The notes: generated by a model from the letters alone, not told the origin. A stretch of DNA of 32,000 nucleotides from Methanobacterium sp. PtaB.Bin024 (GCA_002067065.1 MVPY01000043.1:102334-134333), one strand, 5' to 3'; positions 391 through 3,641 are shown, counted from the first letter of the stretch. A program made the numbers and translations.

Positions 391-1014
391 CTAATTTTCA
401 GCCCATCCCAGGGTTTTCATCAGTTCATCCCCCAAAAGTTCCTTTAAAGAATTCAATTTATCCCGATTTTCAGCTTTTAGTAGAGGTTTACATTGATCTA
501 AAGTAGCATCTCCTGAGAGAATTTTCATTGAAAATGCCATGCAAGTAGCAGTTCCACATTCTTCACAATTAATCTGAGGTAAACAGTTATAAATGTTTAA
601 AGGCCCAATTTTTGACAGTTTTCCTGAAAGATCCTCACCATCAGCTCCATTTTTACTTTCCAAGTAGCACTGGTTAATTTTTTCCATGAACTCAGTAATT
701 ATTTCAATTCCTTCCTCAGGATCCTTGGTGTTCATCATCATGATTTTTCCAGAGGGGAAAAAAGATATAACTCTTTTGTGTGTGTTTAAGGTTAAGATTT
801 TTTTATGGGGGATGAAATTAACGTTTCCTGGGGGGAATTTACCTGCGAAGGTTGGCATTACCTCTTCTAATGTTGAATCAAGTTGCATTGCCAGTTTAAC
901 CCGGCCTTCTTCTGCCATGCAGGGCATTATCTTGGTTATGGAAACACTTTTTACCAGGGCCCCTTTTTCAAAAATTTCGTATTTAAGTTCTTTCATTTCC
1001 ATTTTTATTACCAT
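391..1014 (-). CDS. Fe-S cluster domain protein (RnfB / CdhE N-terminal type [4Fe-4S] motif) with an unrecognised N-terminal domain
   Basis: 207-aa ORF. Its ATG (1012-1014) directly abuts the TAA of the upstream gene, which suggests translational coupling. The C-terminal half carries LPQINCEECGTATCMAFSMKILSGDATLDQC, a C-x2-C-x4-C-x16-C pattern (nt 490-567) typical of the 'putative Fe-S cluster' domain of RnfB and corrinoid Fe-S proteins. The N-terminal ~140 aa were not recognised; ...ISFFPSGKIMMMNTKDPEE... weakly recalls a TBP-like fold. Confidence 0.7.
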   Translation of the reverse strand: MVIKMEMKELKYEIFEKGALVKSVSITKIMPCMAEEGRVKLAMQLDSTLEEVMPTFAGKFPPGNVNFIPHKKILTLNTHKRVISFFPSGKIMMMNTKDPEEGIEIITEFMEKINQCYLESKNGADGEDLSGKLSKIGPLNIYNCLPQINCEECGTATCMAFSMKILSGDATLDQCKPLLKAENRDKLNSLKELLGDELMKTLGWAEN

Positions 1015-1368
1015 TTAAATTTTTATTATATGTTTTTTTGATTTTGAAAGGTTGTAGAGAGTTTTATTATCAATAAGTTCAGTTATCTCTACTAGATCCT
1101 CATATTTAATTCCTCTTTGGATAATAGAATCTAAATGTGCAAATAAAGTCCCGTTAGGGAACAAAGAATATATTAATTCACTTACTGATGGATACCCGAT
1201 CGTTTTTTCCCCAGATTGGTTTTTTAACGCGGCGTAAACACCCTCACCCATTAAAAGAACATCAGCTTCAATGTCTCTATCTAAACTTGCTATTGCAATA
1301 TAAATTCCGCCTAAAGCGTTTTCATGCCCGTAAGGGGCTTTGTCTATTATAACTAATGAGGATGACAT
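1015..1368 (-). CDS. DsrF/TusC-like protein (DsrE/F/H sulfur-relay fold, no active-site Cys)
   Basis: 117 aa. LVIIDKAPYGHENALGG...DVLLMGEGVYA...IIQRGI fits the DsrE/DsrF family pattern. It lacks the Cys-x-x-x-x-RG cysteine. Only 2 nt separate it from the stop of the upstream gene. Confidence 0.65.
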   Translation of the reverse strand: MSSSLVIIDKAPYGHENALGGIYIAIASLDRDIEADVLLMGEGVYAALKNQSGEKTIGYPSVSELIYSLFPNGTLFAHLDSIIQRGIKYEDLVEITELIDNKTLYNLSKSKKHIIKI

Positions 1369-1370
1369 TG

Positions 1371-1760
1371 TTAACTACCTAAAATTATCACTTTACAATC
1401 TTCATCCATCCACGCGGCAAGATCATAAACACTGGTTATTTCCACCCTTTCTAAATAATGTGATTCATCCGTGTATCCTCTTGCAGTTGCACAACGCACG
1501 CAGGCTTTAATTTCACAACCATTTTTGATTAATTTTTCAAAATTCAGTGAAACACTTGGAAAATCACGGGGATTTTGGTCTTTTTGAGGTATATGCACCC
1601 CATCTATGTATAAGAATATTTTCACCCCATAACCTAAATCCAGGGCAGATTCTGCCATTTTATATCCAATATCAGCATATTGTGAAATGTAAGGTCCATC
1701 CAAAAACACAATAACCATTGTATCTTTGTTGGACGTGTTTTCATTGAGGTGTGTTGTCAT
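1371..1760 (-). CDS. DsrE/TusD-like sulfurtransferase subunit
   Basis: 129 aa. MVIVFLDGPY...KIFLYIDGV... together with KACVRCATARGY resembles the conserved Cys region of DsrE/TusD. The start is ambiguous: M1 at 1760 or M15 at 1718. Confidence 0.7.
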   Translation of the reverse strand: MTTHLNENTSNKDTMVIVFLDGPYISQYADIGYKMAESALDLGYGVKIFLYIDGVHIPQKDQNPRDFPSVSLNFEKLIKNGCEIKACVRCATARGYTDESHYLERVEITSVYDLAAWMDEDCKVIILGS

Positions 1761-1780
1761 ATTATCGGCCCGCTTGGTTG

Positions 1781-2113
1781 TTAAAAACTCACAGCCTGGT
1801 TAAAATTCTCCATAACATCTGTTACCATATCATCGTACTTTGAAAACACAATCAAACCATCCTTTATTTGTTCTTCTTTAATTCCTCTTGCTTTAAGGTC
1901 ATTTTCGTAAACATACACGGTTGAACTTTCGAAAACCATTTCTAAATCAGAATTAGAATAATTTTTGTGAGCGCAATAAACTCCGTTTCCCACAAGATAG
2001 GTAGAAATTTGATCAGTATTGACATATAATTTTGAAAAATCAAGAAATGTTTCAAATCCCTGTTCTGAGGGACTTTTTGTTAATATAAATCCTATATGCA
2101 TTTGATTCTCCAT
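1781..2113 (-). CDS. DsrH/TusB-like (DsrE family) small protein
   Basis: 110 aa. IGFILTKSP...YLVGNGVY...VYVYENDLKARGIKEEQI matches the DsrH/TusB-type 'lyvl.eDl.aRGi' pattern. An alternative start at 2101 (MHIGF...) is preceded by GGATGGAG. Confidence 0.55.
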   Translation of the reverse strand: MENQMHIGFILTKSPSEQGFETFLDFSKLYVNTDQISTYLVGNGVYCAHKNYSNSDLEMVFESSTVYVYENDLKARGIKEEQIKDGLIVFSKYDDMVTDVMENFNQAVSF

Positions 2114-2144
2114 CCATAATTTTTTTGTTGTTATTTCAATATCT

Positions 2145-2153
2145 GGGGGGGGG
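2145..2153. repeat. G9 homopolymer (C9 on the coding strand) in the acr3 / dsrH-like spacer, followed by T8 at 2161-2168
   Basis: Read directly: ...atctGGGGGGGGGaggatgaTTTTTTTTcg.... A 9-nt G/C run is conspicuous in this AT-rich sequence. Confidence 0.9.
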
Positions 2154-2187
2154 AGGATGATTTTTTTTCGATTCTATCTATTCTTGG

Positions 2188-3282
2188 CTATGATCCCTTA
2201 AAATAACGTTTTTGGAAGAATAGCGCAACATTCACCAAACTTATTAAGATAGGCACTTCTATTAATGGGCCTATAACCGTAGCAAATGCCACTCCAGATC
2301 CAATTCCAAAAACTGCTATAGCCACTGCTATAGCCAGCTCAAAGTTGTTACTGGCTGCTGTGAATGATATTGCTGTGGTTCGTGTGTAATCAGCCCCAAT
2401 TTTGTATCCCAGGAAAAAAGTGATGAAAAACATAACCACAAAATATACCAGCAGAGGTATGGCTATGATTACCACGTCAAAGGGTATCTGAACTATATAA
2501 TCCCCTTTTAAACTGAACATAACCACAATGGTAAATAAAAGAGCTATTAAAGTTATAGGACTAATTTTAGGTATGAATTTTTCATGGTACCATTCTTTTC
2601 CTTTGATTCTGATTAAGAAAAACCGGGTGATAAATCCGGCAATAAATGGAATCCCTAAATAAATGAATACGCTTTGGGCTATCTGAAGAATACTCACATC
2701 AATCGTAGTTCCCTGGATTCCAAGTAATGGTGGAACTATGGTGATAAAGAACCATGCATATACACTGTAAAAGAAGACTTGGAATATGCTGTTTAGAGCC
2801 ACCAAACTGGCAGCATATTCATTGTTTCCTTTTGCTAGTTGGTTCCAGACTAAGACCATGGCTATGCAGGGAGCTATCCCAATTAGAATTAGTCCTACCA
2901 TGTACTCAGGATATGCTGATAAAAATATTACCGCTAATGCAAACATCAATAAAGGAGCTATTATCCAATTCTGGAACATGGCCAATCCTAAAACCTTCCA
3001 GTCCCGGAAGACTTTAGGTAATTCTTCGTAGCGAACACGGGCCAATGGAGGGTACATCATAAGAATGAGACCTATAGCAATGGGTATGCTTGTGGTTCCC
3101 ACTTGAAATTGGTTCACTATCCCTTTAAAAGCAGGTAAAAAAACACCCATGGAAATTCCAAGCACCATGGCTAAAAAAATCCATAGAGTTAAAAATCTAT
3201 CCAGAAATCCAAGTTTAGGAGTATCACAAATTTGATCAGTGATTTGACTAGCAACATCGTCCTTCATTAGGGATCTCCCCAT
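2188..3282 (-). CDS. acr3: arsenite efflux permease, ACR3 family
   Basis: 364-aa polytopic membrane protein carrying the ACR3 hallmarks [21 protein letters not shown] and GPLIEVP. It sits 8 nt downstream of arsR. Confidence 0.93.
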
Positions 3283-3290
3283 TAATTCAT

Positions 3291-3641
3291 TTATTTTAGG
3301 ATGTTTTCTAAAATGTTTGTAATTTCTGGATTAGACAGACTATAATGCACCCAAACACCTTCTTTTCGCCATTTCAAGAACCCTGCTTTTTTTAAGATGT
3401 TCAAATGATGAGATATGGTTGGTTGTGGTTTTTCCATGGCAGTGATTATCTCACAAACACATAATTCTCCATATTTTAATAAGTGGAGTATTTTAAGTCG
3501 TGTTGGGTCTGCAAGTGCCTTTATGGTGTCCGCATTTTGAATTAGTATATCATCACTTGGGATTTCGGAGGTGATCTTTTTCAGTTGTTTAATCTGTTCT
3601 TCATTGGGCTTTTCTCCAGTGCCAATTTCACATGATTTCAT
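3291..3641 (-). CDS. arsR: ArsR/SmtB-family metalloregulator
   Basis: 116 aa. The winged-HTH region reads [46 protein letters not shown] and includes the ELCVCE As(III)-binding Cys pair typical of ArsR. Confidence 0.9.

Follow-up and report, generated by a model that had tools for sequence, protein, structure and literature searches.

An undescribed putative accessory module in an ars operon of Methanobacterium sp. PtaB.Bin024

Arsenic resistance is well mapped, and its accessory genes have mostly been defined in aerobes and facultative bacteria. In sulfidic anoxic habitats thiolated arsenic dominates, and methanogens influence the mobility of arsenic. Among the accessories, ArsD is a small Cys-triad protein of ars operons with a thioredoxin-like fold, which serves efflux as a partner of the ArsA ATPase. 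A redox precedent in ars clusters is provided by ArsT and ArsX, a thioredoxin reductase and a thioredoxin in actinobacterial clusters that are thought to feed thioredoxin-type ArsC (PMC6514093). Here we analyze 32,000 nucleotides (nt) of DNA from Methanobacterium sp. PtaB.Bin024 (GCA_002067065.1, MVPY01000043.1:102334-134333; this whole stretch is called the window below), in which arsR and the arsenite pump gene acr3 are followed by three small genes of the DsrH, DsrE and DsrF families, known from TusBCD and DsrEFH, and by a gene for an Fe-S protein. We read the locus as an ars operon joined by a putative accessory module that has not been described before. A first-pass annotation of the sequence had held that DsrE-family genes are not known as ars accessories, and we likewise found no publication that lists them as such, or that describes TBP-like/PF04060 or DUF166 genes in this role. 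Unexplained up- and down-regulation of DsrE/F-like genes has been reported in Thioalkalivibrio under arsenite (PMC6620896).

We propose, at a probability of roughly 0.55, that arsR-acr3-dsrH-dsrE-dsrF-FeS is one ArsR-controlled, arsenite-inducible unit, and that its last four genes are an accessory redox module. Transcription would start from a palindromic promoter/operator at 3663-3678 and end at a hairpin and T5 at 389-370. The three small proteins would assemble as in TusBCD and DsrEFH, while the Fe-S protein would draw electrons from ferredoxin, and its low-potential cluster and the nearby Cys would reduce a disulfide, persulfide or As-S adduct on a Cys triad of the DsrE-like subunit. As the outcome, arsenic would be held as As(OH)3, the species exported by Acr3, or Cys-based ars enzymes would be re-reduced; in this the module would parallel, in an anaerobe, the ArsT/ArsX thioredoxin system. 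The proposal is supported by the ars linkage of the module, by a contrast in spacers and terminators between its two layouts, and by a unique conserved palindrome. If true, it would supply a missing redox component of arsenic resistance for paddy soils, aquifers and digesters, as well as the first functional leads for CxxC-type DsrE/YchN proteins, for TBP-like/PF04060 proteins and, in relatives, for DUF166. The idea is testable, since Methanothermobacter is cultivable and the module was found in all nine of the Methanothermobacter genomes searched.

Transcription architecture in two layouts

Gene calls and profile matches show six consecutive genes on the minus strand, and the matches agree with the positions first given for arsR, acr3, the Dsr-like trio and the Fe-S gene. 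The elements of the proposed unit are as follows.

3663-3678, strand not applicable: perfect 16-nt palindrome ATATATTTAAATATAT between the divergent arsR and arsC
3291-3641, minus strand: arsR, As(III)-type ArsR/SmtB repressor (HTH_5, 1.9e-19; NF033788, 5e-29; the translation has an ELCVCE motif, the classic As(III)-binding CVC site)
2188-3282, minus strand: acr3, arsenite efflux permease (TIGR00832, 2.2e-137, 457.8 bits against a cut-off of 282.8)
2114-2187, minus strand: 74-nt spacer between acr3 and the DsrH-like gene
1781-2113, minus strand: DsrH/TusB-like subunit (PF04077, 2.6e-11; TIGR03011, 49.2 bits, equal to the cut-off)
1371-1760, minus strand: DsrE/YchN-like subunit (PF02635, 1.9e-21)
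1015-1368, minus strand: DsrF/TusC-like subunit (PF02635, 1.5e-7; top NCBIfam match TIGR03010, 35 bits, below the cut-off)
391-1014, minus strand: 207-residue open reading frame (ORF) for a TBP-like protein with a CFeSP/RnfB-type [4Fe-4S] domain (PF04060 'FeS', 1.5e-12, residues 145-177)
370-389, minus strand: hairpin then T5, terminator-like in a terminator scan and the likely end of the transcription unit

The acr3 gene starts 8 nt past the arsR stop. Within the module, the junctions are a 20-nt gap, TAAcaATG and TAAATG, which is the 0-20-nt coupling that had been noted at the outset. The true start of dsrH is likely the ATG at 2101, as judged from a GGAG 8 nt upstream and from the match to the MHIGF start of the orthologues, and that of the Fe-S protein is likely the ATG at 1002, giving 203 residues, because the homologues have this length.

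Relatives of the module were compared through flanks of about 8-9 kb per side from 32 family loci and 55 loci of a species-level genome collection, with neighbours mapped by tblastn. None of the loci examined separates the Dsr trio from the Fe-S gene, and the four genes occur in two layouts. In the window type, DUF166 and arsC on one strand diverge from arsR-acr3-dsrH-dsrE-dsrF-FeS on the other. The second type, according to Pfam assignments, runs along one strand in the order (arsM, RDH-like) arsR, DGC-domain gene, arsC, DUF166, (acr3), dsrE-dsrF-FeS-dsrH.

The two layouts differ in what precedes and follows the module. Oligo-T is the archaeal termination signal. The acr3/dsrH spacer of the window, which the first reading had described as free of oligo-T, has a longest coding-strand T run of 2, and in none of the nine orthologous window-type spacers does a T run reach 5, the maximum being a single T4. 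The sequence of this spacer is poorly conserved among orthologous loci, and the C9 and A8 runs on its mRNA strand in the window (2145-2168) are not conserved in the orthologous spacers. Past the last gene, by contrast, the 3' flank carries T5 in the window and T4-T9 in the orthologous loci, mostly T6-T9 (T4 in L068), often after a hairpin. Terminator-free spacers together with a terminator past the last gene fit one ArsR-controlled transcript in window-type loci, and on this evidence co-transcription of the four downstream genes with arsR-acr3 is favoured.

In the second layout, T5-T8 runs are seen in seven of seven Acr3-DsrE spacers and in 19 of 24 DUF166-DsrE spacers. These runs are followed by an AT-rich 28-nt element, TCATTATTATTCATGSACAATTATTTAT, which 28 loci, some of them from Methanothermobacter, share at about 55 nt ahead of the dsrE start (for example, L083:8130-8160) and which occurs once per genome in four of the five complete genomes searched. 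The element is absent from window-type loci and is present in the E-F-FeS-H layout even inside ars islands. Judged by its placement and conservation, TCATTATTATTCATGSACAATTATTTAT is a putative dedicated promoter or operator of the second layout, and the T runs with this element before dsrE mark that layout as a transcription unit of its own. The window type fits a loss of both the terminator and the TCATTATTATTCATGSACAATTATTTAT element, and would then read as an extension of arsR-acr3.

The candidate control site of that extended unit is the palindrome ATATATTTAAATATAT, which fits a shared TATA box and ArsR operator. With up to one mismatch allowed, the genome has no second such site, and the window has five matches at three mismatches or fewer against 0.2 expected. 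Eight other window-type loci carry an exact copy or one with a single mismatch some 35 nt ahead of arsR, and sites with two mismatches or fewer precede the first gene (ArsM, RDH-like or DGC) of other ars islands. A scan for bacterial-type promoters gave promoter-like sites that are not commoner than in shuffled sequence, and only its terminator-like site at 389-375 was informative; Rfam gave no match in window positions 1-6000 at E values up to 0.1.

Conservation of the ars linkage

Recurrence of the linkage between acr3 and dsrE-like genes in other genomes had been set in advance as a check able to overturn the idea. Counting as ars-linked any locus with ArsR, ArsC, Acr3 or ArsM within about 6.5 kb, we find ars genes beside the module in 29 of the 47 loci that have enough flank. 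These loci fill three of the five supported clades in a maximum-likelihood tree of the Fe-S proteins and represent two gene orders. Of the 101 Methanobacteriaceae genomes sampled, 30 encode a full-length relative of the Fe-S protein, and Acr3 scores over the cut-off in 23 of the 30 genomes with the module versus 14 of the 71 without it, an association that is inflated by the kinship of relatives. At L032:9700-9935 (minus strand), acr3 is deleted, and only its last codons are left between arsR and dsrH; this deletion scar shows a module that stayed behind arsR after the pump was lost. The linkage in three clades and two orders, together with the L032 locus, indicates that the ars linkage is real and has survived rearrangements.

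Several observations weigh against the proposed unit. The remaining 18 of the 47 loci (about 40%), mainly in two clades, have no ars gene nearby. The second layout, with its putative promoter element insulated by terminators, implies that the module can work outside ars control. In the window itself, a weak TATA-like sequence, TTGAAATA, lies in the acr3/dsrH spacer about 18-30 nt before the start codons and may leave room for an internal promoter. DUF166, the steadiest neighbour of the module elsewhere, is missing from the window operon. The arsC gene of the window is frameshifted, so re-reduction of ArsC would not be the only role of the module here, unless the shift is an assembly error. Finally, we infer complex formation and electron flow from homology. 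With about 40% of the modules away from ars genes and an element of its own in the second layout, ArsR control would be limited to the window-type arrangement. The original suggestion that ArsR co-regulates the module is thus upheld, as a prediction, for the window-type architecture and not for the module in general.

The loci without ars genes share a conserved chromosomal site, at which a divergent class-I pyridine-nucleotide disulfide oxidoreductase (Pyr_redox_2) and a rubrerythrin adjoin the module. One such site is seen at L083:5807-7219 (minus strand) and 5318-5749 (plus strand), with an M50 peptidase and MoeA downstream. These loci are what would be expected if the module served general thiol or sulfane-sulfur housekeeping (sulfur trafficking, oxidative or sulfide stress) and had been captured repeatedly by ars islands, with no arsenic-specific chemistry, its place behind acr3 doing nothing but borrow a promoter. 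We hold this to be unlikely. It would account for the 18 loci at the disulfide oxidoreductase/rubrerythrin site, for the TCATTATTATTCATGSACAATTATTTAT element that the E-F-FeS-H layout keeps even within ars islands, for a relative of the Fe-S protein that is fused to a cysteine desulfurase, and for the seven module-bearing genomes that lack an intact Acr3. However, chance or hitch-hiking poorly explains adjacency to ars genes in three clades and two gene orders, and it deals no better with the retention of the module after acr3 loss in L032 or with terminator loss in the nine window-type spacers. Moreover, the genome has placed its only DsrE-family genes under an arsenite sensor.

The genes around the proposed unit include further ars-related members.

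3699-4135, plus strand: arsC, thioredoxin-type (LMW-PTP), split in two frames by a 1-nt shift near 3891; intact in relatives
4221-5453, minus strand: ferredoxin plus RDH/QueG-like Fe-S protein (TIGR02486, 6e-14)
5574-5599: ATATAT-N4-ATATAT, which nearly repeats the arsR palindrome, some 125 nt ahead of the RDH/QueG-like gene
3-359, minus strand: gene for a DUF2115 protein, beyond the hairpin and T5

The shift in arsC falls at a non-homopolymer site, and the genome has, on contig C33, an arsM-like gene that is likewise in two frames; the two splits are either real decay or assembly errors of the metagenome-assembled genome (MAG). The ferredoxin plus RDH/QueG-like gene is found beside ars genes in many related loci, which makes it a frequent member of ars islands, and with its upstream near-palindrome it may share a regulon with arsR. 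The DUF2115 gene corresponds to the further ORF of the first-pass annotation. It is indeed on the minus strand, and its position past the hairpin and T5 puts it probably outside the unit. A DUF2115 gene also follows the operon terminator in several window-type loci (L033, L036, L063, L064, L067), which is a case of conserved synteny.

Other neighbours recur in relatives of the locus. Genes with a DGC domain (PF08859, L046:4285-4662) and DUF166 genes (PF02593, L046:5157-5813) are regular members of methanogen ars islands. DUF166 has five conserved Cys residues and is the most constant neighbour of the module elsewhere. In the present genome, its copies lie outside the operon, on contigs C82 and C34, and one copy is flanked by genes for an amino-acid kinase and a semialdehyde dehydrogenase; we therefore rejected DUF166 as an obligatory partner in cis. 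In the second layout, small ORFs that resemble zinc ribbons (C-x2-C ... C-x2-C) directly precede arsR, at a distance of about 100 nt (L080, L087-L089, L104); L071 and L072 have several copies.

The Dsr-like trio and the TBP-like/[4Fe-4S] protein

The three small proteins match PF04077, PF02635 and PF02635, in that order, which bears out the H-E-F gene order read from the sequence at first. Their assignment holds at this family level and not at the level of the TusD and TusC equivalogs. The top NCBIfam matches of the DsrE-, DsrF- and DsrH-like proteins are TusD (29.5 bits versus a cut-off of 89.25), TusC (35 versus 94.15) and TusB (49.2 versus 49.2, exactly at the cut-off), respectively, and only the DsrH-like subunit reaches an equivalog cut-off.

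The cysteines of the trio are distinctive. The DsrE-like protein of the window contains a triad, C82-x4-C87-x2-C90, in which C87 aligns with the Cys of a VVCVAAAQRRG stretch in DsrE (2hy5), which we take to be the reactive, active-site Cys78, as well as with the CKTC of YchN. The CxxC of this subunit is invariant in 44 of 44 sequences, and a third Cys is near it in 43 of the 44. The position of the third Cys depends on the layout: in the window type (C-x4-C-x2-C) it precedes the CxxC by five residues, and in the other it follows by about eight. The DsrF-like subunit is Cys-less in the window and has a Cys at the S28 position in the other layout. The DsrH-like subunit has a single Cys, C47, which is retained in window-type loci, and it has no Cys near residue 20, where the conserved Cys of DsrH presumably lies. 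The two DsrE-family genes of the operon are the only ones in the genome. Searches of this 97%-complete genome for TusA (PF01206) and DsrC/TusE (PF04358) gave no match, and both searches matched their families in control genomes.

The trio had initially been read against the persulfide relays of the DsrEFH/TusBCD type. A canonical Tus/Dsr relay is ruled out by the missed equivalog scores, by a CxxC with a third Cys, by a DsrH-like subunit lacking a Cys near residue 20, and by the failure to find TusA or DsrC. DsrE-like proteins with CxxC or UxxC have been listed among predicted redox selenoproteins (PMC13188914).

Three clustered cysteines are also the usual S3 ligand set of As(III). On this ground the DsrHEF-like complex could be an arsenite metallochaperone analogous to ArsD, in which As(III) bound at the three-Cys site of the DsrE-like subunit is passed to Acr3, with the Fe-S protein as sensor or assembly partner. 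The third Cys moves between layouts while the CxxC is fixed, as for a ligand that needs only proximity, and in the window type the module is directly behind acr3. Many modules, however, are without a neighbouring Acr3, and a chaperone leaves the obligatory [4Fe-4S] partner unexplained; we judge this reading improbable.

That partner proved to be a composite protein. The C-x2-C-x4-C-x16-C motif that had marked it as an Fe-S protein is confirmed and lies in a PF04060 domain (47.5 bits versus a cut-off of 23). The protein is not a plain ferredoxin, since a TBP-like domain is fused to the CFeSP-type domain. The PF04060 cluster domain matches the large subunits of CFeSP (4djd, 2h9a, 2ycl) with about 45% identity over about 50 residues, and its four cluster Cys residues are invariant in 50 diverse relatives. 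In an AlphaFold2 model with a mean confidence (pLDDT) of 93.3, the order of domains is a TBP-like repeat, the CFeSP-type cluster domain and a C-terminal helix. Residues 9-119 form a single TBP-like repeat, with a Z score of 11.4 and a root-mean-square deviation of 2.3 over 93 residues against Sulfolobus TBP, and Foldseek is concordant. The Pfam TBP profile PF00352 scores 18.6 bits versus a cut-off of 22.9, and there is one repeat rather than two in tandem. A true TBP is excluded by the single repeat and the score below the cut-off, leaving a TBP-like fold only. One Cys of the TBP-like domain is, like the four cluster Cys residues, invariant or nearly so across relatives, and one further Cys is invariant within Methanobacteriaceae.

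Among 1.8 billion representatives, 234 relatives score below 1e-10, for example in Bathyarchaeia and Nezhaarchaeota. In one of these relatives, P0208 (582 residues, from a Thermoanaerobacterales MAG), a class-V cysteine desulfurase is fused to the TBP-like and [4Fe-4S] domains. Others are extended at the N-terminus, by about 95 or about 190 residues. The extension of about 95 residues, in relatives of 270-280 residues, has no Pfam match and no similarity to ArsR, and we rejected it as an ArsR helix-turn-helix, which might have been the source of the JGI label 'ArsR family metal-binding transcriptional regulator' on homologues. No ArsR-like part was found in the protein. A single metagenome scan with a Bathyarchaeia relative returned two short contigs with uninformative neighbours, one ORF being ArsD-like at a sub-threshold 22.7 versus 27 bits.

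The TBP fold of the N-domain (Z 11.4) and the JGI name would both suit a redox- or metalloid-sensing regulator that binds DNA as a TBP-saddle-like homodimer and controls the module, for example through TCATTATTATTCATGSACAATTATTTAT, the AT-rich element that is conserved some 55 nt ahead of dsrE in 28 loci, as a single copy per genome. We consider such a role very improbable. TBP-like folds also occur in enzymes and binding domains that make no DNA contact, and a shared fold does not show function. Furthermore, window-type loci keep the protein and lack the TCATTATTATTCATGSACAATTATTTAT element, the fusion to cysteine desulfurase better fits an enzymatic partner, and the N-terminal extension of the longer forms is not ArsR-like.

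Proposed chemistry and comparison with known systems

Redox or arsenic chemistry by the accessory module is supported by the invariant CxxC with its third flanking Cys, by the CFeSP/RnfB domain of electron-transfer type, by the cysteine desulfurase fusion in P0208, and by the finding that these are the sole DsrE-family genes of a genome in which TusA and DsrC were not found. The disulfide oxidoreductase and rubrerythrin that adjoin the modules away from ars genes also argue for redox chemistry. A more specific version, which we regard as doubtful, is that the complex and the TBP-like/[4Fe-4S] protein together would constitute a new ferredoxin-dependent As-S/persulfide reductase that processes thiolated arsenic at the three-Cys site for Acr3. 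Its substrates would be thioarsenite, thioarsenate or As(III)-thiol adducts. If true, sulfidic and strictly anaerobic life would have an arsenic-detoxification step of its own, for which no counterpart has been described. An additional role of the Fe-S protein in the E-F-FeS-H layout might be autoregulation of the operon via TCATTATTATTCATGSACAATTATTTAT.

Each of the known systems shares part of this arrangement. ArsD, like the DsrE-like subunit, is a Cys-triad protein encoded beside ars efflux genes; no sequence relation between them was found, however, and there is no ArsA at the window locus. The C-x2-C-x4-C-x16-C domain is held in common with the N-terminal domain of the CFeSP large subunit (AcsC/CdhE) and with RnfB. 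Its role in those proteins is to supply a corrinoid or the Rnf chain, whereas in the module protein it comes after a TBP-like domain that has an invariant Cys, and both the TIM barrel and the corrinoid part of CFeSP are missing.

ArsT and ArsX are likewise accessory thiol-redox proteins within ars clusters. They have flavoprotein and thioredoxin folds, in contrast to the unrelated DsrEFH-like and [4Fe-4S] proteins of the module, and use NADPH where ferredoxin would be the electron source here. In addition, the module persists in this genome despite the split arsC.

YchN (E. coli, 1jx7) and the UxxC/CxxC DsrE-like selenoproteins share with the DsrE-like subunit a single-domain DsrE fold and the placement of the CxxC, which reads CKTC in YchN and CVRC here. 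YchN is a homo-oligomer; the CxxC subunit of the module, in contrast, has DsrF- and DsrH-like partners and an Fe-S protein, and is placed under an arsenite sensor.

Finally, TusBCD (E. coli, 2d1p) and DsrEFH (Allochromatium vinosum, 2hy5), which are sulfur-relay heterohexamers of alpha2-beta2-gamma2 type, resemble the trio in having three adjacent small paralogous genes of the DsrE, DsrF and DsrH families, and C87 of the module fills the reactive-Cys position of DsrE/TusD. The module departs from both in its gene order, which is H-E-F or, in the other layout, E-F-x-H; in its active site, where a CxxC and a third Cys replace a single Cys; and in its DsrH-like subunit without a Cys near residue 20, in a genome where neither TusA nor DsrC/TusE was found. 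It also differs in its context, which is ars rather than dsr or tRNA thiolation, and in its constant partner, the TBP-like/[4Fe-4S] protein.

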